DNA from: a virus
Taxonomy: Duplodnaviria > Caudoviricetes
Virus record (IMG/VR): IMGVR_UViG_3300027278_000024
Location: 1 to 35,106 of that record
Length of the DNA: 35,106 nucleotides
Strand: one strand, 5' to 3'
Each line of letters starts with the position of its first letter. The stretch's first letter is position 1. The notes under the pieces were generated by a model. That model saw only the letters and a program-made list of their open reading frames with translations. It was not told where the DNA came from and ran no database searches. A program made the translations under genes and the position numbers. Of the stretch, positions 660 to 12,931 are shown piece after piece.

Positions 660-2247
660 CGACTTCAACGGTCTGCCAAAGTACGACGCGATCGCGACCG
701 CTGGTGATGCGAAGTGGAACGGCAACGCCGCGCTGCACGCAGTCACATTCATCCAGACGATGTGCAGGTTCACCGAAGGATCGTGGAGTGGCAAGCAGTT
801 CATCCTTCAGAAGTGGCAGCGAGATCTGATCGCGAACCTGTACGGATGGATCAGGCCAGACGGAACGCGCAGGTATCGCAAGGCTCATGTGCTCATCCCT
901 CGAAAGTCTGGGAAGACCGAGACGGCTGCGGCGATTCTTCTCTACTCGCTCCTTGCTGATGACGAGCCAACGCCTGAATGCGTCGGAATCGCGCGCGACC
1001 GAGAGCAGGCGAAACTCTGCTTCAAGCGCGCCAAGCGCATGGTTGAGTTGGAGCCACAGATGTCCTCGATGGTCGAGGTGTTCCAGAACCGACTCGTCTC
1101 TCCGGCTGTGCATGGCGTGTACAAGGTGCTGTCCTCGGATGCTCCCGGCGCACACGGATTGAATGTCAGTGCATGCGTGGCAGATGAGATTCACTCGATG
1201 GAGAACCGCCGCGATCTCTGGGATGCAGTCGCAACATCTCAGGGCGCGAGGAAACAGCCGCTCATGCTGTCCATCACGACAGCCGGAACCCTCCGAGAGT
1301 CTTTGGAGTTCGATCTGTTCCAGTACGGACAGAAGGTGTGCGAGGGCGTGATTCAAGACCCTTCATTCCTGCCGTGCATGTACTACGCAGACGAGGCTGA
1401 TGACTGGCAGTCTCCAGACACATGGCGTAAGGCCAATCCCTCTCTGGGAACGACAGTCTCGCTCGACTGGTATGCAGCGGAGGCCAAGCGCGCGGTCGAT
1501 CAGCCTTCGCACGAAACTCCGTTCAGAACCTACTTCCTGTGCCAGCATGTGAGCGCGTCGAGCCGCTGGCTTCGAATGTCAGACTGGGATGAGTGTGAGA
1601 GGGAGATCGACGAGGCATCCCTCGCCAAAATCCCGTGCTATCTCGGTATTGACTTGGGACAGACGCAGGATCTCTCATCTCTTGCGGCGGTCTGGGTGGA
1701 TGGAGACCGCATCGTCGTGAAGTCGTGGAACTTCGCTCCCGAGGTTGGGGCTGCTATCCGCGCTCGCAGAGATGGCGTTCCGTACTTACAGTGGCAGGAG
1801 CGCGGGTGGCTCACGCTCACACCCGGCGACACGACCGACTACGCATTCATCGTCAAGCAGATCGAGGAGATCGCCAGCAGGTACAAAATCCGAATGATCG
1901 GCTATGACCCGTACAACTCGCAGAACTTGGCGAACGACCTTGAGCACAAGGGCATGAATGTCGTTCGCGTTCCGCAGTCGTTCCTCAACCTGTCTACGCC
2001 TACGCGCATGTGGGAGCGCGCGGTGACTGGCAAGACGCTTGAGCATGATGGGAATCCGGCACTGGCGTTCGCGATGGCGAATACGGTGGTTGAGACAGAC
2101 TTTGCAGGCAACCCGCGCCCGTCGAAGCGTCGGTCAGTTGAGCGAATCGACCCGCTCGTCGCGGCGATCGTCGCGCTGGCTGCGAGCCTTCACGATGAGA
2201 AGATTGGCGCAAGCGTCTACGAGAAGCGAGGATTGACATGGCTCTGA
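580..2247 (+). CDS. terL: Terminase large subunit
   Basis: Adenine-binding LQKWQ, Walker A IPRKSGKT, Walker B VADEIH, ITTAG coupling motif, nuclease motifs GIDLG, YDPYN and RIDPLVA. Confidence 0.97.
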   Translation: MKRQRKQPTSSHDSQQSSPALDWSRPDDFNGLPKYDAIATAGDAKWNGNAALHAVTFIQTMCRFTEGSWSGKQFILQKWQRDLIANLYGWIRPDGTRRYRKAHVLIPRKSGKTETAAAILLYSLLADDEPTPECVGIARDREQAKLCFKRAKRMVELEPQMSSMVEVFQNRLVSPAVHGVYKVLSSDAPGAHGLNVSACVADEIHSMENRRDLWDAVATSQGARKQPLMLSITTAGTLRESLEFDLFQYGQKVCEGVIQDPSFLPCMYYADEADDWQSPDTWRKANPSLGTTVSLDWYAAEAKRAVDQPSHETPFRTYFLCQHVSASSRWLRMSDWDECEREIDEASLAKIPCYLGIDLGQTQDLSSLAAVWVDGDRIVVKSWNFAPEVGAAIRARRDGVPYLQWQERGWLTLTPGDTTDYAFIVKQIEEIASRYKIRMIGYDPYNSQNLANDLEHKGMNVVRVPQSFLNLSTPTRMWERAVTGKTLEHDGNPALAFAMANTVVETDFAGNPRPSKRRSVERIDPLVAAIVALAASLHDEKIGASVYEKRGLTWL

Positions 2248-5177
2248 TTGATGGTCTGTTGAAGCGGTTCAAGTCGATGGTCAACCCGGGACAGCCGCTC
2301 GGCTCGACTCAGGTGTACACGGGCCAGTACAGCGATACTGGTCAGGCGATCACGCCGACCGTGGCTCTCACATGCACGACCGTGAACGCGTGTGTGCAGG
2401 CGATCGCGACAGAACTCGCGAAACTTCCGTGGAGTGTCATGTCGATCGCGAACAACGGTCGAGTGATCGCACGCGATCACCCCGTTCATCGCTTGCTGTC
2501 GCGCGACGCGAATCCCGACATGTCCGCGCTCATGTGGCGCGAACTGATGATTACCTCTGCGGCTCTGACTGGCAACGGCTACAGCCACATCGAGCGCGAT
2601 GTCGCCGGAAGGCCCGTTGCGCTGCACTACCTCCGTCCAGACCTGATGAATGTGATCCGGCTCGGCACTGGCGAGATCGCATACATCTATTCCGGCTCGG
2701 AAGGTCGCGCGGTCTTCAGTTCATACGACATCTTCCATCTTCAGTGGCTGAGTGTCGATGGTCTGCTTGGCTACAGCCCGATCAGTCTGGCTCGCCAGTC
2801 CATTGGTCTGGCGATCGCTCAGGAGACATTCGGAGCCTCATACTTCAAGAACGCGAGCAGGCCGAGCGGCGCGCTGGTCGCGGACAAGGAACTGAGCGAT
2901 GAGGCTCTCCAGCGCATTCGCGAGTCATGGGAAGCGCGCATGAAGGGCGTTGCTGCGGCTGGATCCGTTGCCGTGCTGGAAGGCGGTCTCAAGTGGCAAC
3001 CGATCTCGCTCTCTCCAGAAGATTCGCAGTGGCTGCAATCGCGAGAGTTCCAGCGTGATGAGATCTGTTCGATCTTCCGCGTGCCGCCGAGCGTCATCGG
3101 CATGGGGCAGAACGCTTCCTATGCGAGCGGCGAACAGCAGAACCGCGCTTTCGTCTCTGGCTGTTTGTCTAGTTGGAGCGCGCGCCTCGAAGCAGAGGCG
3201 CAGCGCAAACTGCTTCGAGCCGAGGAGGCCGCAGACTTCTGCACCGAGATCTCATTCGATGTGCTCCTCAAGAGCGATGTGATGACTCGATACCAGACCT
3301 TCTCGATCGCGCGGCAGTTTGGCTTCCTCAGCGTGAACGAGATTCGCGCCGAGATCGGTCGAGGCTCGATCGGCGAAGAGGGCGACACCTACCTGCAACC
3401 GACCAACATGGTTCCTGCGTCAACGCCGTTCGGCGGAACGCAGTTGACTCCTCCCGGGACTGAAGAGCCAGCGATGACTGGTATCGAACCGAATCCCGAT
3501 GCCGTCCCCGACGAGCCGATCGCGAGGTGGCTTTGGCGCATCTTCGAGGAAGAGATCAGGAACTGCGGCACTGGTGCTGGCGGCTTCGCTTCGGGCAACG
3601 ATTGCGCGAAGGGTGGCGGAGGCGGTGCGTCCGATCGTCCGAGCGCAAGAACGCTAGCGGAGTTCATCGCTGACCCAAAGAACGCGGATGGATTCACGAC
3701 GGATCCGTATGTCAAGAATCAGCCTGACAGCGGGATCATGGTCTCTGAACTCCCGCAGCACGAGTTGAAGATCAGTCGCGACATGCTCGTCTCTGGAGAC
3801 GGAGCGAAGGCGATTGATGCGTGGCTCGACAAGGCGTGGAGCGACATCGAAGGTCGTGACGATCGCTTCATCGGAGGCTGGTACAACGCTGGAGAAGGTG
3901 TCTTCTACCTCGATGTCGCGACTCGATTCGAGAACGGGCAGGACGAGCGCGCGCTAGAGGCCGCGCGCGATGCCAAGCAGTTGGCCGTCTTCAATCTTGC
4001 AACGATGAAGGCGACTTGGGTGAAATACCCGAACGGTGACGCGCGCAAGCCTGATGGCTGGGATACTAAGTATGCAGACGCGATCGGAGGTATGGACGAC
4101 GACGCGCGTCAGGAGACTGAATCATCTGGGTCGAACAAGGTGCGTAGCAGCACCAGAAGGAAGACACATGGAACAGGAAGCATCTCAGGATCGTCACTTC
4201 ACCTTGCCTCAGGAGACCGACAAGGAGAAGGTGCGCGCAATGCTCAAGGAGTTGTTCGCGAAGATCGCCGAAGAGCACAAGGCGAAGAAGGACTGACCGA
4301 GCGAGATTGCGGCACTGGTGCTGGCGGTTTTCAGCCGGGTAACTCGTGCGCGAAGGGCGGAGACGGTGGATCTGATGAGCCTGTGGCTGTGACAGCCGAC
4401 ACGATGAAGGGCTACGCCGAGAAGGTCGATGGAGGTGCGACGGCTGATCCAGAACTGGACGGCGCGCTCGTGCCGAAGGATCCCGAGACCATCGCGAAGG
4501 AGCACGAGCGTCAGAAGCAGGAAGTGGCAGATCGCATCGGAGTTCCGAGCGACTGGTCTCCCAACATCTCGAACTCCGCGAAGACGCGAGACGAACTTGC
4601 CGCCGACGCTGAGTCTGTCGGTGAAGAGTTCAAGTCGATGCTGCGCTCGATCGCGGATGAGACTGAAACGGTTCCAAACTTCGGCCCGGGCGACGCATTT
4701 GCAGTCAAGACACGCGAGTCTCTGTCTCGAAAGGTTGAGGCGAAACTTGCTGGCAACTCTGGGAAGACCGAAGAGCAGGTTGTCTCGCAGATCTGCGACT
4801 CTGTGCGGGGAACGCTAATCGCAGACTCGCCCGAGCAACTCGGAGATGCGCTGCGTCAGTTCAAGAGCAAGATTGAGGCCGATGGTGGAAAGATGCGCGT
4901 TGGAAACATCTTCTCGGAAGGTCGCCCGGACGGGTACAGTGCGGTGCACACGGAAGTAGAACTGAAGACGAGCACTGGCAGATCTGTGCTCGCAGAAGTG
5001 CAGTTCCACTTGAAGAGCGTGCACGATGGAAGCACCAAGTCTGCGAAGGAGCAGGCACACAAGTTGTACGAGAAGGCTCGCACTGGCAAGGGTGGTGCGA
5101 AGGCGTTGCACGCGATGCAACTCATCTTCGCTACAGCCGTAGCAGTCGCCGTTGGAACGATCGGAGGAGTCAAGTGA
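2238..5177 (+). CDS. HK97-family portal protein (first ~395 aa) with long C-terminal extension: two CGTGAGGF-tagged modules, the last RelA/SpoT-like
   Basis: Portal motifs GNGY, GLLGYSPI, ASRPSG, VLEGGLKW, ICSIFRVPP, LSVNEIR and GDTYLQPTNM, followed by ~580 extra aa in the same open frame. Confidence 0.92.
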   Translation: MALIDGLLKRFKSMVNPGQPLGSTQVYTGQYSDTGQAITPTVALTCTTVNACVQAIATELAKLPWSVMSIANNGRVIARDHPVHRLLSRDANPDMSALMWRELMITSAALTGNGYSHIERDVAGRPVALHYLRPDLMNVIRLGTGEIAYIYSGSEGRAVFSSYDIFHLQWLSVDGLLGYSPISLARQSIGLAIAQETFGASYFKNASRPSGALVADKELSDEALQRIRESWEARMKGVAAAGSVAVLEGGLKWQPISLSPEDSQWLQSREFQRDEICSIFRVPPSVIGMGQNASYASGEQQNRAFVSGCLSSWSARLEAEAQRKLLRAEEAADFCTEISFDVLLKSDVMTRYQTFSIARQFGFLSVNEIRAEIGRGSIGEEGDTYLQPTNMVPASTPFGGTQLTPPGTEEPAMTGIEPNPDAVPDEPIARWLWRIFEEEIRNCGTGAGGFASGNDCAKGGGGGASDRPSARTLAEFIADPKNADGFTTDPYVKNQPDSGIMVSELPQHELKISRDMLVSGDGAKAIDAWLDKAWSDIEGRDDRFIGGWYNAGEGVFYLDVATRFENGQDERALEAARDAKQLAVFNLATMKATWVKYPNGDARKPDGWDTKYADAIGGMDDDARQETESSGSNKVRSSTRRKTHGTGSISGSSLHLASGDRQGEGARNAQGVVREDRRRAQGEEGLTERDCGTGAGGFQPGNSCAKGGDGGSDEPVAVTADTMKGYAEKVDGGATADPELDGALVPKDPETIAKEHERQKQEVADRIGVPSDWSPNISNSAKTRDELAADAESVGEEFKSMLRSIADETETVPNFGPGDAFAVKTRESLSRKVEAKLAGNSGKTEEQVVSQICDSVRGTLIADSPEQLGDALRQFKSKIEADGGKMRVGNIFSEGRPDGYSAVHTEVELKTSTGRSVLAEVQFHLKSVHDGSTKSAKEQAHKLYEKARTGKGGAKALHAMQLIFATAVAVAVGTIGGVK
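3558..3617 (+). repeat. CGTGAGGF tag repeat copy 1 (RNCGTGAGGFASGNDCAKGG)
   Basis: Peptide and DNA repeat, also present at 4302 and 5387. Confidence 0.9.
4168..4296 (+). CDS. Small ORF (42 aa) nested in another frame of the portal extension; possible partner/immunity protein
   Basis: AGAAGGAAG RBS at 4155-4163, ATG at 4168, genome-typical codons (gac aag gag aag gtg cgc ... aag gac tga), whereas the portal frame uses atypical codons over this stretch. Confidence 0.6.
   Translation: MEQEASQDRHFTLPQETDKEKVRAMLKELFAKIAEEHKAKKD
4302..4361 (+). repeat. CGTGAGGF tag repeat copy 2 (RDCGTGAGGFQPGNSCAKGG)
   Basis: Peptide and DNA repeat. Confidence 0.9.
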
Positions 5178-6538
5178 GCAAGAAGCAGTTCTACATCATG
5201 GAAGGCGATGTGATCGAGCAGGTCGGGCTTGATCTCTATCTGCTCGGTGTGAATGGAACTCGCGCTCCATTCGATGACTATGCGGCCTTCGCCGGGAACG
5301 CCCGTGGAGTTCCAGAGGACTTCGCGATGGCGGAACTGGCGAAGCAGCGCGCGGAGTACATCGAGCGCACTGGAGGTTCGGAGGCTCGCGACTGCGGAAC
5401 TGGTGCTGGCGGCTTCAAGCCCGGGAACGCGTGCGCCAAGGGTGGTGGCGGTGCTGAAGAACCCGAGGGCGGATACGGGCCTGATGGCGGTCACAGGATG
5501 ATTGCCGGAATCACGCTCGTCGAGACGGAGAAGATCAAGGGCATTGAAGTGACGACGGAGGTCGTCGATGCGGTCATGGGAAATGTGACGGACGAGATCG
5601 CATCTCTTTGCGAGTCTGATTACAACCTCGATGCGATGGATGCTGAGGGAAACGATCCGAAGCACGCTGACGAGATCCAGCGTGGATCTGGCAAGTATGC
5701 GCTGAACGCTTGGCAGGGTGCTGGATTCAAGCCGATGCTGATTGCGATGAACGGAGAACTCAGTGACGCGTACTGGGATGACGAAAGCAGCGTGTATCCG
5801 GCGGGACTCTTCGCGCAGATGAATGAGTTGTCTGCCGCAAGCGGAGGCTTGATTGCGCCGCCCATGTCATGGGAAGACACGCTCGTATATGAGCGTGAGG
5901 ACTTCGCAGACAAGATTGAAAAGAAGGGCGAGTATTCGGCTGAGGTGGTAGAGGCGATTCGCAACGGAGACTACGACTCACTCCGAGATGAAGATGGTGC
6001 ACTGCTCGATGTGCATGACGAACTTTGGAACAATCAGGTCATGTGGAAGCAGCAATGGTTCAAGGACACCGAGCAGCAGTTGCAGAAGGTCGGAGAGTCG
6101 ATCTCTCAGATGGCGAAGGACACGCCGCTTGATCTCGGAGAGGATGCCAATCTGTTCAGAGGCGGAACTCTTCCGCGCTCCTTCGCAGAGGACGGATTGG
6201 GTCTCTACGACTTCGCTACGCAACTTGCGAAGGACGGTGACTTCCAGATGGACAATCCGCATTCGAGCACGAAGGATCCGAACGCTGCGCGATCGTTTAT
6301 GACTGCTGGTCAGTCCGTGATGATGGTGTTCCGCAATCCGAAGTCTGGAATCGACATGAATCAGGTGAACGAGACATCCAACTTCGCGAGTGAGGCGGAA
6401 GTTCTACTGCCGCCTCAGACTTACAAGGTCTCGAAGGTTCGCGTCATTCATTCGAAGCACTCGAAGATCCCCGGCAAGACGATTCCGCGCGGCGTGATCG
6501 TTGAACTCGTCCCGAAGGAGGCATCAGATGTCGCTTGA
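5174..6538 (+). CDS. CGTGAGGF-tagged protein with C-terminal ADP-ribosyltransferase (VIP2/C3-like, R-S-E) domain
   Basis: GGAGGAG RBS and GTG overlapping the portal stop. Motifs LFRGG, HSSTK and SEAEVLLP occur in the order and spacing of R-STS-ExE ARTs. Confidence 0.75.
   Translation: MSKKQFYIMEGDVIEQVGLDLYLLGVNGTRAPFDDYAAFAGNARGVPEDFAMAELAKQRAEYIERTGGSEARDCGTGAGGFKPGNACAKGGGGAEEPEGGYGPDGGHRMIAGITLVETEKIKGIEVTTEVVDAVMGNVTDEIASLCESDYNLDAMDAEGNDPKHADEIQRGSGKYALNAWQGAGFKPMLIAMNGELSDAYWDDESSVYPAGLFAQMNELSAASGGLIAPPMSWEDTLVYEREDFADKIEKKGEYSAEVVEAIRNGDYDSLRDEDGALLDVHDELWNNQVMWKQQWFKDTEQQLQKVGESISQMAKDTPLDLGEDANLFRGGTLPRSFAEDGLGLYDFATQLAKDGDFQMDNPHSSTKDPNAARSFMTAGQSVMMVFRNPKSGIDMNQVNETSNFASEAEVLLPPQTYKVSKVRVIHSKHSKIPGKTIPRGVIVELVPKEASDVA
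5387..5446 (+). repeat. CGTGAGGF tag repeat copy 3 (RDCGTGAGGFKPGNACAKGG)
   Basis: Peptide and DNA repeat. Confidence 0.9.
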
Positions 6539-6938
6539 AGACTTTCCACTCGACATGATTGGCTGGAGGCCAAAGGCCAAGCAGGAGGCTTCGCGAGCGA
6601 AGCCTGATTCGTATAAGCCAACCAGTGGCATGGTTACTGAGGCCAAGCGTGGTCTCGCGTGGAGAAGTGAGTTCGGACGGGGAGGAACCGCTGTCGGCAT
6701 CGCCCGCGCACGAGACATTGCCAACGGCAAGTCGTTGCCTCTGGCGACTGTCAAGCGCATGATGTCGTTCTTCTCGCGCCACGAGGTGGACAAGAAGGGC
6801 ACTGGCTTCAGCCCCGGCGAGGATGGATTCCCAAGCAACGGGCGAATCGCGTGGGCACTCTGGGGCGGAGATGCCGGATTCTCTTTCGCGCGCTCGATCG
6901 TTGCCCGTGCCGCTAGCGCAAAGAAAAAGGGGAAGTAG
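6528..6938 (+). CDS. Conserved phage head-module protein of unknown function (PTSGM...GGTAVGIARARDI...IAWALWGGDAG)
   Basis: AAGGAGG RBS at 6515-6521, ATG at 6528. I recall this domain near portal/protease genes in environmental phages; not checked. Confidence 0.7.
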   Translation: MSLEDFPLDMIGWRPKAKQEASRAKPDSYKPTSGMVTEAKRGLAWRSEFGRGGTAVGIARARDIANGKSLPLATVKRMMSFFSRHEVDKKGTGFSPGEDGFPSNGRIAWALWGGDAGFSFARSIVARAASAKKKGK

Positions 6939-6947
6939 GATCGAATC

Positions 6948-7553
6948 ATGGCTGATCTCGAATATCGAGCGAAGAAGAATCTTTCTCTGCGTTGCCAAAG
7001 CGGCGAGCCTGTCTCGCTGGTCGGATACGCGTCAACCTTTGACAGCCCATACGAGGTTGAGGGCATGATCGAGACTGTGCATCGAAGCGCGTTCGATCGA
7101 ACGCTGCGCGAGATGCCTGATGTCTTCGCGCTTGTCTCGCACGACCCGGGTCGGGTGGTTGGCCGAACGACGAACGGCTCGCTGGCCCTTCGATCCGATG
7201 ACAACGGCCTGCATGTCACCCTGACTCCGATCGACACGCAGGAGGGTCGCGATCTCGCTACTCTCGTGCGAACCGGAACGATCGACTCGATGTCGTTCGG
7301 CTTCATCGTGAAGGATGACAAGATCGAGATGCGCGATGGTCGCATGCACAGGCAGATCAGGGATCTGGAACTGCACGAGGTGAGTTGCGTTGCGTTCCCT
7401 GCCAACAGTCAGGCTCGAATCTCTGCTCGATCGAAGCAGCGAGCCGACGAGATCGCGCGGAGCGCGGTCTCGCAGATCAGACTCGAACGGATGCGGAGGC
7501 TTCTGATCCTGCCGATCCACAACATTGGAGGCTCGACGAATGGCACTGTCTAA
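6948..7553 (+). CDS. HK97-family prohead protease (peptidase S78)
   Basis: GYASTF, SHD (catalytic His), MSFGF (catalytic Ser), LHEVSCVAFPA. Confidence 0.95.
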   Translation: MADLEYRAKKNLSLRCQSGEPVSLVGYASTFDSPYEVEGMIETVHRSAFDRTLREMPDVFALVSHDPGRVVGRTTNGSLALRSDDNGLHVTLTPIDTQEGRDLATLVRTGTIDSMSFGFIVKDDKIEMRDGRMHRQIRDLELHEVSCVAFPANSQARISARSKQRADEIARSAVSQIRLERMRRLLILPIHNIGGSTNGTV

Positions 7554-8634
7554 CTCGAACAACGGGCAACTGGCTCCGCGCACGATCGCTGAGGCTGCGT
7601 GGACGCGGCTCTACGATTCGTTCCCGCTCAACCTTGTGAGTCGCGCTACTGGCCCGCGCGGTTTCATTCAGCCAGCGAGCACGAACGCTGCTGATGGGAC
7701 GATTCAGTATCTGTCCGAGGCAACGGCTCAGGGAGCAGAGAGCACTTTTCAGCCGACGATCAATCAGAAGTCTGATGATCTTGAGACCTACCGCGCGAGC
7801 GTTCTCGTGTCGAATCAACTGCTGGCGGACTCGCGCGTGCTGGAGTTCATCGGCGCGCGTCTCGCGGGTCAGATCATCGAGCGCGTCGCGCGTGATACCG
7901 TCCTCGCAATCGCCACAGCCCTCAAAGATGCAAGTCGATTCTCTGAGTACAATCACTTCGATGTCGGAGCGGTTGGCGTGACTGGTACTGCCAAGATCGA
8001 GGATCACACCGGGTTCAAGGCTCTGTCCAACCTGTCGAATACCTACCGCTCTCGCGCTTGCTGGGTGTTCTCTCAGACTGGTCTCCAGAACTGGGGCACG
8101 CAGGAAGGTCGAATCAACCTCGTTACTCTCGGAGTTCGTCAGGAAGATGGCGCGTATCGTCGCGTCATCGGAGAGCCGATGAGTTCGGAGTCGCTGCTTG
8201 CTGGCGGTGGCGGTGGCGGTGGCGGTGGCGGCGGCGGAGGTGGTTTTGTCGGCGGTGGCGGCGGTGGTGGTATTGGCGGTGGTGCTGGCGGCAATCTGGG
8301 CGGTGGCGCAGAGCAGGCAGGCAGCGGCCTGACGCTCGAAAGTCGAGCGAAGTTGGTGTCGAAGACTCCGACGACCGATCAGTGGCACACCGCGTATCTC
8401 GGATGCCCCGTCTACACATCGACTGGCCTCTCTGCGACTCACAACGAACTCGATGGAGTGTGGATGCTTGTCGCAGACATGTCTGCGTATCTGCACTTCG
8501 ATCAGCCGCTGTCTGTGCGGCTGGACACTGAGAGCCGTATCGCACAAAATCAGACTGTTATCCATGCCGCGTACCGTGCGGGTGGAGCGTTCATGGAACC
8601 GACAGCGGGATGGGCAATCGTCTCACCCGCGTAA
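7540..8634 (+). CDS. Divergent HK97-fold capsid-like protein with poly-Gly insertion
   Basis: GGAGG RBS. Collinear blocks with the MCP: VSNQLLAD/VSNELLAD, YRSRACWV/YRANAKWV, YLGCPV/LLGYPV, AQNQT/ANNQT. Confidence 0.75.
   Translation: MALSNSNNGQLAPRTIAEAAWTRLYDSFPLNLVSRATGPRGFIQPASTNAADGTIQYLSEATAQGAESTFQPTINQKSDDLETYRASVLVSNQLLADSRVLEFIGARLAGQIIERVARDTVLAIATALKDASRFSEYNHFDVGAVGVTGTAKIEDHTGFKALSNLSNTYRSRACWVFSQTGLQNWGTQEGRINLVTLGVRQEDGAYRRVIGEPMSSESLLAGGGGGGGGGGGGGGFVGGGGGGGIGGGAGGNLGGGAEQAGSGLTLESRAKLVSKTPTTDQWHTAYLGCPVYTSTGLSATHNELDGVWMLVADMSAYLHFDQPLSVRLDTESRIAQNQTVIHAAYRAGGAFMEPTAGWAIVSPA
8203..8308 (+). repeat. GGC/GGT low-complexity tract encoding poly-Gly
   Basis: ggcggt iterations encoding GGGGGGGGGGGGGGFVGGGGGGGIGGGAGGNLGGG. 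Confidence 0.9.
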
Positions 8635-8653
8635 CCCTTAGAGGAGCACTGTG

Positions 8654-9991
8654 ATGGATCAGCCGATGGAAAAGCCCGCAAGTGGCAAGGAGATGAAGAA
8701 GATGAGCATTCGTGAGATCACCGACGAGATCGGTCGTCTCTATGAGGGCATGAAGTCCCTCGTGGACGAGTCGCAGAAGGAAGGCGAGCCTCTCGCGCAG
8801 GAGAAGGAAGAGCAGTACAGCCGCATGAATGGCCGTCTGACCGACCTCATCAAGATGCGCGATCAGCACTACCGCCTGCTCGACGCTCAGGCTGCGGCCA
8901 CTCGCTCGATGGATCGCAAGGTTGAGGATGCGAGCCGCGCTCGTGACCTGACCGCGAAGCAGAGCGACAATCTCCGCAACTTCACTGGCAGTGAGGAGTA
9001 TCGCAGCGCGTTCTCGAAGTACCTGCGCGTTGGTGCTAACGAACTGACCATTGACGAGCAGCGCGCCATGAGCGAAGGAACCGACTCCGCTGGTGGGTAT
9101 CTGCCCGCTACCGAGTTCCTCTCGACTCTGATCGAGCAGCGTTGGCAGGCCAATGCGATGCGTCAGGTCGCGAATGTCATTCCGCTGGGCACTTTCAACA
9201 CCGAAGTGGTGTATGAGAGCGCGTTCGCAACTGCCGCGTACTCGAACGAGGCCGCTGACTTCTCCAGCAGCGAGAGCAACGGAACCTTCGCCAAGTTGAC
9301 TCTGAAGCCGTACACCCTGCGCGTGTTCACGAAGGTGAGCAACGAACTGCTGGCGGACGCTCCGAGCCGTGGCCCGTCGTTCAATGTCGAGAGCATCATC
9401 GCCCGTCAGTTCGGTCGCGTGATGGGCGAGAAGGAAGAGGCGGCGTTCCTGACGGGCAGCGGCAGCGCACAGCCCAAGGGCATTCTGTCCTACACCTCCG
9501 GCACTGGAACGACGATCAGTCCTGTGACCGCATCCGCTACGACGAGCGTCACGATTCTGGAACTGGCTCAGGTGGTCGCTGCGCTTCCTCGCAAGTATCG
9601 TGCGAATGCGAAGTGGGTGATGAACGACGCGACCTTCTGGAAGATCCGTCAGTTGCTCCAGACGCAGAGTGGCACGAATGTGGGCATCTCCTACGCGCCG
9701 TTCGCATGGAGCCTTGGCGATGGTCGTCTTCAGGACGGCGAGCCGGATCGTCTGCTGGGCTACCCGGTCGTGTGCGCCAACGGCGGCAACTCGGTCGCGG
9801 CTGGCAACATCGTGGCAGCGTTCGGTGACTTCAACTACTTCCACATCGGCGAGCGTGAAGGCGTGTCGATCAAGACCGCTCGCGAGGCGTTCCTCGCGAA
9901 CAACCAGACGGGCTACTTTGGCTTCGCCCGTCACGACTCGCAGGCTTCGGTGCTGGATGCGTTCCGCTACCTGAAGATGGCCGCTTCGTGA
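8654..9991 (+). CDS. Major capsid protein, HK97 family, with N-terminal delta (scaffold) domain
   Basis: GAGGAG RBS, coiled-coil N-terminus, EQR-AMSEGTDSAGGYLP junction, VSNELLAD, FLTGSGSAQPKGI, LLGYPV, FGDF. Confidence 0.96.
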   Translation: MDQPMEKPASGKEMKKMSIREITDEIGRLYEGMKSLVDESQKEGEPLAQEKEEQYSRMNGRLTDLIKMRDQHYRLLDAQAAATRSMDRKVEDASRARDLTAKQSDNLRNFTGSEEYRSAFSKYLRVGANELTIDEQRAMSEGTDSAGGYLPATEFLSTLIEQRWQANAMRQVANVIPLGTFNTEVVYESAFATAAYSNEAADFSSSESNGTFAKLTLKPYTLRVFTKVSNELLADAPSRGPSFNVESIIARQFGRVMGEKEEAAFLTGSGSAQPKGILSYTSGTGTTISPVTASATTSVTILELAQVVAALPRKYRANAKWVMNDATFWKIRQLLQTQSGTNVGISYAPFAWSLGDGRLQDGEPDRLLGYPVVCANGGNSVAAGNIVAAFGDFNYFHIGEREGVSIKTAREAFLANNQTGYFGFARHDSQASVLDAFRYLKMAAS

Positions 9992-12157: not shown

Positions 12158-12538
12158 ATGGCCGTATCTAGTCAAGGAATCACTCTCAGCACGGGCACGC
12201 TCGTCGGCGAGATCACTGCGATCTCCTTCAGTGGTGTCTCGGTCGCGGAGATTGATGTGACCTCAATCAGCGACACTGTGAAGAAGTATGTCACGGGCAC
12301 TCTCGATGGAGGTACGGTGGAAATCACCGCCAACTTCACGACTGCTCCGACGATGCCTTCGCAGGGCGCGGAAACTCCGTCATCGTTTGGTATCACCATC
12401 CCGACCACTACGCCAACCGTGCTTTCGATCACGGCGTTTGTCGTCGGCATGTCGATCGACGCGTCCGTCGATCAGCAGGTCGTCGTCAAGTACACCCTCC
12501 GCATCTCGAACAGCGTGCTCGGCACGACCAACGCCTAA
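12158..12538 (+). CDS. Tail tube protein, paralogue 1 (126 aa)
   Basis: EIDVT..D..KKYVTG..DGGTV motif typical of siphophage tube proteins. Confidence 0.85.
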   Translation: MAVSSQGITLSTGTLVGEITAISFSGVSVAEIDVTSISDTVKKYVTGTLDGGTVEITANFTTAPTMPSQGAETPSSFGITIPTTTPTVLSITAFVVGMSIDASVDQQVVVKYTLRISNSVLGTTNA

Positions 12539-12550
12539 AGGAGAACCGAC

Positions 12551-12931
12551 ATGGCTCTTTCTAGTCAAGGAACACTCTTTACGACTGGTGGTGTGGTTGG
12601 TGAAGTCACCGCCATCTCCGTCAGTGGCGTGTCGGTCGCGGAGATTGATGTCACCGCGCTCGCTGATACGGTCAAGAAGTATGTGACCGGAACTCTCGAC
12701 GGCGGTACGGTGGAGATCACCGCAAACTTCACTGCGGCTCCAACTATGCCTCAGCATGGTGCTGAAACTCCGTCGCAGTTCACGATCACATGGGGCGGAA
12801 GTGTCGCTCAGACCTTCTATGCCTTCATCGTCGGCATGTCGATCGACGCATCTGTCGATCAGCAGGTCGTCGTCAAGTACACACTGCGAGTCAGTCATCA
12901 GATCATGGGAGTCGGCTCCGCACCCGCGTGA
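12551..12931 (+). CDS. Tail tube protein, paralogue 2 (126 aa)
   Basis: AAGGAG RBS; close paralogue of 12158-12538. Confidence 0.85.
   Translation: MALSSQGTLFTTGGVVGEVTAISVSGVSVAEIDVTALADTVKKYVTGTLDGGTVEITANFTAAPTMPQHGAETPSQFTITWGGSVAQTFYAFIVGMSIDASVDQQVVVKYTLRVSHQIMGVGSAPA

Follow-up and report, generated by a model that had tools for sequence, protein, structure and literature searches.

A repeated glycine-rich tag leads three cargo domains, predicted to be cut free by the prohead protease, in the head module of a tailed phage

The virus record IMGVR_UViG_3300027278_000024 (Duplodnaviria; Caudoviricetes), which was analysed over its whole length and will be referred to as the window, is a linear record of 35,106 bases and 95% complete according to CheckV. 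At its left end lies an HK97-type head module with the order TerS, TerL, portal, S78 prohead protease, capsid-like gene, major capsid protein and head-tail connector. Within this module three unrelated domains (cargoes 1 to 3) each follow a copy of the same short peptide, here called the tag. We favour, with moderate confidence, the reading that the three tagged cargoes are cut free by the prohead protease and are probably delivered together with the DNA. An earlier reading, made from the letters of the window without database searches (the sequence-only reading), had proposed a MuF-independent polymorphic system at this place, and its individual claims are taken up below.

Organization of the tagged cassettes

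The sequence-only reading had described the tag as a glycine-rich element of 20 residues with two cysteines, present at 3558, 4302 and 5387. All three copies were recovered (3558-3617, 4302-4361 and 5387-5446; these, the cassettes and the protease and major capsid genes below are all on the plus strand) as members of one repeat family (D7), 72-81% identical with the reference copy across 67 nucleotides (nt). The tag motif occurs three times in the six reading frames of the window, compared with 0 occurrences in 100 nucleotide shuffles. As had also been stated, the first two modules are in frame with the portal, tags 1 and 2 lying inside a single open reading frame (ORF) of 979 amino acids (aa; 2238-5177), which unites the portal, cargo 1 and a RelA/SpoT-type (RSH) domain. 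The N-terminal part of this polyprotein (2238-3557) consists of an HK97-type portal domain (PF04860, E 1.3e-97; TIGR01537) and a Pro/Glu-rich linker and is followed by tag 1, cargo 1 (3645-4085), tag 2 and cargo 2 (4560-5177). The third tag starts at residue 72 of the next ORF (5174-6538), behind a segment of 71 aa (5174-5386) and ahead of cargo 3 (5453-6538). One further record (G001) is identical to the window (100%) across 2238-7553 (5,316 bases), and two 97% relatives (G002 and G003) have the same reading frames wherever they overlap with it; because of the identity of G001 and the shared frames of G002, the cassette region is not regarded as an assembly slip.

The residue ahead of the tag

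The predicted cut sites ahead of tags 1, 2 and 3, based on the repeat family, the ORFs and residue comparison, read E-I-R/N, T-E-R/D and E-A-R/D (the slash marks the predicted cut). The arginine that leads every tag in the window also occurs at the start of the Peptidase_S78 prohead protease, the predicted cutting enzyme (6948-7553; PF04586, E 2e-40; E-Y-R/A), and at the predicted maturation junction of the major capsid protein (8651-9991; PF05065, E 1e-49; E-Q-R/A at residue 138). This junction, where HK97-type proteases cut the capsid protein, was predicted here by likeness to HK97.

The residue at the capsid junction was compared with the K or R nearest to the tag among the five residues ahead of it in 236 tag-bearing loci, from which 149 without a capsid junction were dropped; the strict-tag loci formed 19 capsid clusters at 70% identity. 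Nine clusters showed R at both places and eight K at both, the remaining two being R/K and R/none, so that 17 of 19 were concordant (Fisher p 4e-4). At 50% capsid identity concordance was found in 10 of 11 clusters (p 0.024). GC content and Arg/Lys usage overlapped between the K and R groups. Judged by eye, lineages with other proteases carry L/F, A, E or N ahead of the tag, and the same residues recur in their own scaffold or protease proteins. The sequence-only reading had counted the leading R as part of the tag pattern; given the K/R concordance with the capsid junction, this arginine likely belongs to the cut site of the head protease instead.

Distribution of the tag

An exact scan of viral DNA for the 8-residue core of the tag found at least 145 viral stretches, with an estimated total of about 280. 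Outside the eight residues that the search prescribed, 97 distinct tags retained G in 94 cases, N in 96 and the second C in 95. Domains were scanned in 57 non-redundant tag ORFs of at least 250 aa, drawn from 143 tag ORFs. A head-protein domain was present in 30 of them, namely 13 HK97-type portals, 13 lambda-type portals, three S78 proteases and one MuF domain (L021), the match to which scored just under the cut-off, and the other 27 had no recognised anchor, many ending at contig edges. Named cargo behind the tags comprised ART-PolyVal (above the cut-off in 7/57), VIP2-type ADP-ribosyltransferase (ART), zeta toxin, PARP-like and GNAT domains. When all tag loci were taken together, at least 148 distinct segments behind tags fell into at least 55 single-linkage clusters, most of them without a name. 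The tag pattern, for which a search of viral sequences had been proposed, hence leads variable and often enzymatic domains in the head modules of many phages.

A search of the 95%-complete record with the MuF1 and MuF2 profiles (PF04233, PF06152) gave no match, in agreement with the sequence-only reading, which had seen no MuF domain. Its term MuF-independent is correct for this record but not for the tag in general: since the tag occurs on two portal types, on prohead proteases and behind MuF, it is not specifically MuF-independent. A loose tag pattern applied to bacterial genomes yielded mostly noise, with true tags in 7 of 121 stretches.

The tag is one among several short glycine-rich motifs that occupy the same slot. 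Among 154 cargo-1 homologues, 60 had one of eight such patterns upstream and four the strict tag, and three different tag types were found within one region or protein of L210. This locus (L210:5383-18031), from a bin titled archaeon, contains two giant ORFs (~2,400 and >1,750 aa) with many modules split by A-N-E-like sites. A sister tag, R/[AG]F-C-x-T-G-x-G-G-G-x-D-N (L284-L351 and others), was observed in 174 viral stretches, and single head regions contain as many as seven or eight copies. Tag strings matched no paper in the literature searched, mostly non-subscription text, and the motif could still be noted in subscription journals or supplements; the tag is apparently undescribed.

A peptide in this position could simply form the downstream half of a longer protease recognition site, or be a two-cysteine cap guarding the new N-terminus, with cargo entering by head-protein fusion alone and the tag having no role in loading or ejection. 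This would agree with the tag standing nearly always directly behind the predicted site, 106 of 117 distinct upstream contexts ending in D or N, and with head-protein fusions making up the majority of the long tag ORFs in which an anchor was recognised. The same tag, however, stands behind K, R and, as judged by eye, L/F, A, E and N sites in phages whose proteases differ, a behaviour not expected of a single enzyme's recognition site; moreover, unrelated tags fill the same slot, and ORF 5174-6538 carries its tag without a head-protein anchor. We regard this explanation as unlikely and retain the reading that the tagged cargoes are released by the protease and delivered.

Cargo domains

The sequence-only reading had placed an unrelated domain behind each tag, the first unknown, the second RelA/SpoT-like and the third an ADP-ribosyltransferase, and profile searches upheld both enzyme assignments. 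Cargo 2 matched PDB entry 8VX3 as a single sequence (E 1.8e-5), and a profile of seven rows reached E 5.6e-20 and found SaSAS and Tas1 above RelA. The synthetase (Syn) motifs are intact, with K, K, D, R, Y, E and H invariant in the 7-row alignment, and judged by these residues cargo 2 is an alarmone-synthetase domain of the small RelA/SpoT type. It also matches the C-terminal part of the 'head morphogenesis' PHROG phrog_7625 (E 2e-5). The nearest solved relative belongs to the group of a Streptomyces synthetase that, according to the excerpted text of PMC12691689, makes both alarmones, (p)ppApp and (p)ppGpp; because the entry code occurs in that text, we infer that 8VX3 is the protein described there.

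Cargo 3 consists of an acidic N-terminal region and a C-terminal domain (6029-6535) with the R, S-x-S/T and E-x-E motifs of ADP-ribosyltransferases (R44, S79, E122 and E124 of the domain), of which R, S and E are invariant in 21 rows. Its profile reaches a solved ART at E 1.6e-11, and structural comparison by Foldseek gave 125 matches at E<=0.001, with C3/VIP2-type ARTs at the top ranks. Sequence and structural model thus agree in predicting an R-S-E ADP-ribosyltransferase at the C-terminal end. A search for longer relatives of cargo 3 found none, which is weak evidence.

Cargo 1 is an alpha/beta domain common in phages (166 relatives at E<=0.001) with a confident AF2 model (pLDDT 94.5), and it also occurs as stand-alone small proteins. 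Its fold found 20 viral matches at E<=0.001, none naming a function. In the PDB there was neither a sequence match nor a Foldseek match at E<=0.001, and the best wide structural search gave Z 4.2; no Pfam family was common to more than one of 68 relatives, and the Atlas yielded only a match of 0.88. Weak structural rows suggested a SAM lyase (Z 2.9 and 2.5), a reading that was not supported, as hhalign against one T3 sequence gave a probability of 0.3-0.4%. In Mycobacterium phage MoMoMixon, gp107 (L274:6168-9560) has a cargo-1 homologue at its end; the R-T-A motif ahead of this homologue is also present in neighbouring proteins, and a gene of 70 aa follows gp107. MoMoMixon represents a cultured system in which cargo 1 could be tested.

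Small segments next to the cargoes

A segment led by a ribosome-binding site (RBS) had been noted behind each domain, at 4168, 5174 and 6528. RBS-like sequences indeed stand ahead of all three; the first, however, is a nested gene and the last mostly a head-module domain. As candidate partners of the cargoes, the gene at 4168 and the 71-aa segment behave like cognate partners, whereas most of ORF 6528 does not.

The ORF at 4168-4296 (42 aa) sits in the +1 frame inside the linker of the portal polyprotein as a separate gene and is a candidate partner or immunity protein of cargo 1. Conservation was analysed in 18 non-redundant cargo-1 loci with enough downstream DNA, four more matches without the anchor motif being skipped. 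The main frame reads on in 16 of the 18, and an RBS-led +1 ORF, chosen by eye among candidates, was found in 15 of these 16. Each nested homologue outscored all 200 of its own shuffles against the profile of the rest, the nested frame is more conserved than the main frame (mean BLOSUM 1.20 versus 0.43), and the main frame contains 0 stops in 835 codons compared with 35.6 expected from synonymous resampling, the joint probability for the nested gene being overstated because the loci are related. By these measures a conserved gene is overprinted at 4168 in the +1 frame. The identical and 97% relatives, the 16 in-frame loci and the depletion of stops also led us to reject assembly error or chance as the origin of the read-through from cargo 1 to cargo 2. 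Nested genes general to all cassettes were not supported: they were found at 10 of 118 later tags and at 43 of 1967 control positions, most of them behind cargo 1, and the nested gene is on this count specific to cargo 1 rather than general.

The 71-aa segment, a hypervariable candidate partner of cargo 2 fused ahead of tag 3, differs from G002 at 48 of 213 nt, while the protease differs at 4 of 606. Beside it, G002 has a patch of ~30 differences within cargo 2, neighbouring genes differing by 1-2%. G003 shows 17 differences in the segment, and this record does not span the cargo-2 patch. In L276, an ORF start resembling the segment by eye follows an RSH homologue. This pattern fits a co-varying partner of cargo 2. 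Inside the variable patch, at 4750-4765, a compensating 1-base insertion and deletion that shifts the frame of ~4 codons was observed in G002 and runs X6 and X7.

For its main part, ORF 6528-6938 was rejected as an immunity gene, since most of it belongs to phrog_2859 (E 2.6e-31), a domain general to head modules that 140 of the 236 tag-bearing loci contain. The first ~25 residues, to which this domain is fused, resemble by eye short leaders behind ART domains elsewhere. The phrog_2859 domain itself (6600-6935) is highly conserved and occurs alone or within portal polyproteins, and it may be a core part of the loading system.

The order of a toxin followed by a small partner is a layout like that of toxin-antitoxin modules. 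Together with the stand-alone occurrence of the cargo-1 domain, it would fit cassettes that are expressed late and act in the producing cell, in superinfection exclusion, defence against rival phages or lysis timing, and that ride the strong head operon without being injected. The portal fusion has, however, been kept in frame under a dual-coding constraint, which is a high price to pay if cargo and head required no link, and the residue upstream of the tag tracks the capsid junction. Action in the producing cell therefore appears quite improbable to us, and delivery of the tagged cargoes with the DNA remains the reading that we follow.

Cassette exchange at the tags

The cassettes had been predicted to be polymorphic, and within this lineage they are. 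In L483 and P0005 the portal lineage, tag 1 and cargo 1 are the same as in the window and the second cassette is different, the tags of L483 staying in place as islands of likeness between unrelated cargo. P0031 carries cargoes 1 and 2 with their tags and no portal. A contig of run X8 in which position 3622 is joined directly to 4364 lacks 741 bases from tag to tag without a shift of frame, and with them cargo 1 and the nested gene. The junction contig has a depth of 9.7 with 102 bases on the short side, and the depth of this run is zero over 3648-4190; because tags 1 and 2 share at most 20 exact bases, an assembly chimera is less likely. Four additional runs contained no further joints.

Tag DNA as an anchor for swapping cassettes, as suggested by the sequence-only reading, thus has one direct example, but general support across 15 lineages is weak. 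The window's own tags agree at 6.0 of 8 silent positions versus 3.2 expected, and between lineages these positions vary freely (2.9 of 8). As the likeness at silent sites is weak over lineages, selection acts mainly on the peptide, recombination at the tag being a side benefit. That the tag serves chiefly as an anchor for DNA recombination or is a relic of repeated duplication, and the peptide a neutral glycine-rich linker, is very improbable, for although the deletion in X8, the silent-site agreement in the window and the islands in L483 favour it, the retention of G, N and the second C while silent sites vary argues for selection on the peptide.

Proposed function

The sequences themselves establish the layout, the identities of the two enzyme domains, the agreement of the residue ahead of the tag with the predicted capsid junction, the nested gene and the gain or loss of a cassette at the tags; loading, cutting, delivery, toxicity and immunity are inferred. 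In the favoured reading, cargoes 1 and 2 would enter the prohead as parts of the portal chain, and loading of the third cassette, which is not fused, likely relies on the tag. Cleavage by the S78 protease behind the arginine would leave (D/N)-CGTGAGGF as the new N-terminus of each cargo. Until maturation separates the two, the small partners (the 4168 gene, the 71-aa segment and the first residues of ORF 6528) would likely hold the cargo in an inactive state within the producing cell. After injection, alarmone synthetase and ADP-ribosyltransferase may alter nucleotide pools or host metabolism and proteins, or blunt defence early, like Alt of T4. The repeated tag DNA likely offers occasional recombination points for cassette loss or exchange.

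Several observations weigh against this reading. The capsid junction used in the residue test is itself predicted by HK97 likeness, 149 of the 236 loci were excluded from the test, and its strength is limited because the phages are related and the K/R label changes only twice on a capsid tree of 20 rows. The site is loose, E-x-R occurring also inside the portal and cargo 1, both folded domains; tag 2 is preceded by T-E-R and not by E-x-R, and in one cluster the tag lies ~25 residues behind the nearest fitting Arg. Cargo-1 homologues often lack a tag, 34 of the 154 beginning at most 30 residues from the protein N-terminus, with hardly any sequence ahead of the domain. Of 8 runs, one shows the tag-to-tag deletion, in a single contig, and silent-site likeness within genomes is weak over 15 hand-picked lineages (3.5 of 8 versus ~2.9-3.0; permutation 167/5000; Wilcoxon p 0.23).

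How phages choose the proteins that are carried in the head and injected is understood in few cases only, such as T4, and the conserved tag together with a predicted cut site makes cargo selection directly testable. With at least 55 cargo clusters, the tag also provides a sequence handle for mining injected anti-host or anti-defence proteins. Standard gene calling often overlooks ORFs such as the overprinted partners, and polyprotein effectors that appear to have no partner may therefore have hidden antidotes. As a tentative extension, the tag, once exposed by the head protease, might serve as a portable address through which any protein behind it is loaded or ejected. It would then be one of a family of interchangeable tags across portal, protease and MuF fusions, its DNA serving as a swap point and antidotes being overprinted in the linkers. 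If true, this would amount to an undescribed general code for protein entry into tailed-phage heads and delivery.

Comparison with known systems

The comparisons in this section refer to excerpts of the cited papers. Effectors fused to portal, MuF or capsid-processing peptidase, with predicted packaging, were described by Iyer et al. 2017 (PMC5512222) and in 2022 (PMC9503650), another reason why the sequence-only wording of a MuF-independent system is not upheld. Like the window, these polyvalent or head-fused effectors combine disparate enzyme domains (ART, RelA/SpoT and others) in one chain or on head proteins, lie in the packaging module and are predicted to be injected, and the window indeed contains at least two disparate domains in one chain or head-protein fusion within its portal-terminase packaging module. 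Unlike in the window, processing of polyvalent proteins is proposed mainly via metallopeptidase domains within the protein, and the excerpted accounts mention no short repeated tag, link to the capsid-maturation residue or overprinted partner genes.

MuF polymorphic toxins share the genomic position, RelA-like and ART toxin domains and a small ORF behind the toxin domain (PMC5576092), and the variable C-terminal toxin domain in the head module that characterizes them is found here as RSH and ART domains behind the portal. In contrast to these systems, the window is without MuF1/MuF2, its anchor is the portal, and it has several tandem cassettes, every one of them headed by a tag. By membership the system is not a MuF toxin, and judged from its genes it would work like head-fused phage effectors. 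Compared with the Apk2 system, described with IapK and Aph1 (PMC12226406), cargo 2 likewise has intact synthetase motifs, but there is no MuF fusion in the window and no match to the HD_4 hydrolase profile, which Aph1 may itself escape.

In T4, for which a capsid-targeting sequence, internal proteins and Alt are described (PMC9958956), proteins bound for the head likewise bear a short marker peptide, trimming is done by the prohead protease, and the packaged proteins include an ART; the corresponding steps in the window are predicted ones. The N-terminal peptide of T4 is cut off, whereas the tag lies behind the predicted cut, would remain on the cargo and is repeated inside polyproteins. Effectors fused to head proteins were thus already known; this system is distinguished by the tag, apparently undescribed so far, a cut-site rule open to testing, the overprinted partner gene and one natural loss of a cassette from tag to tag.

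Further features of the record

Runs with the window's DNA carried the source labels marine, freshwater, plankton or plain metagenome, and no RNA dataset was among the listed runs. True tags were found in genome contigs titled Lentisphaerae, Opitutaceae, Singulisphaera and Pirellulaceae and in one 'archaeon' bin (titles for 5 of 7), from which we guess at a planctomycete or verrucomicrobial host. As to a temperate lifestyle, tag-bearing head modules are present in bacterial genome contigs, and a search of the record for tyrosine integrase (PF00589), the only integrase type covered, gave no match.

A second, capsid-like gene at 7525-8634 (PF05065, E 1.6e-8; TIGR01554) precedes the true major capsid gene and contains a long poly-glycine insert. 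Extra capsid-like genes also occur in L483 and, judged by position, in other relatives. Between 24116 and 28506, ahead of a row of small genes of no assigned function, six to seven intergenic repeats each consist of a hairpin-like part and a conserved stretch with an AAGGAG RBS and ATG at its end; from their sequence they are likely shared early-gene promoter or leader cassettes. Finally, two tandem paralogous genes were observed in the tail region (12203-12888), with DNA blocks that are 78-90% identical and lie ~390 nt apart.

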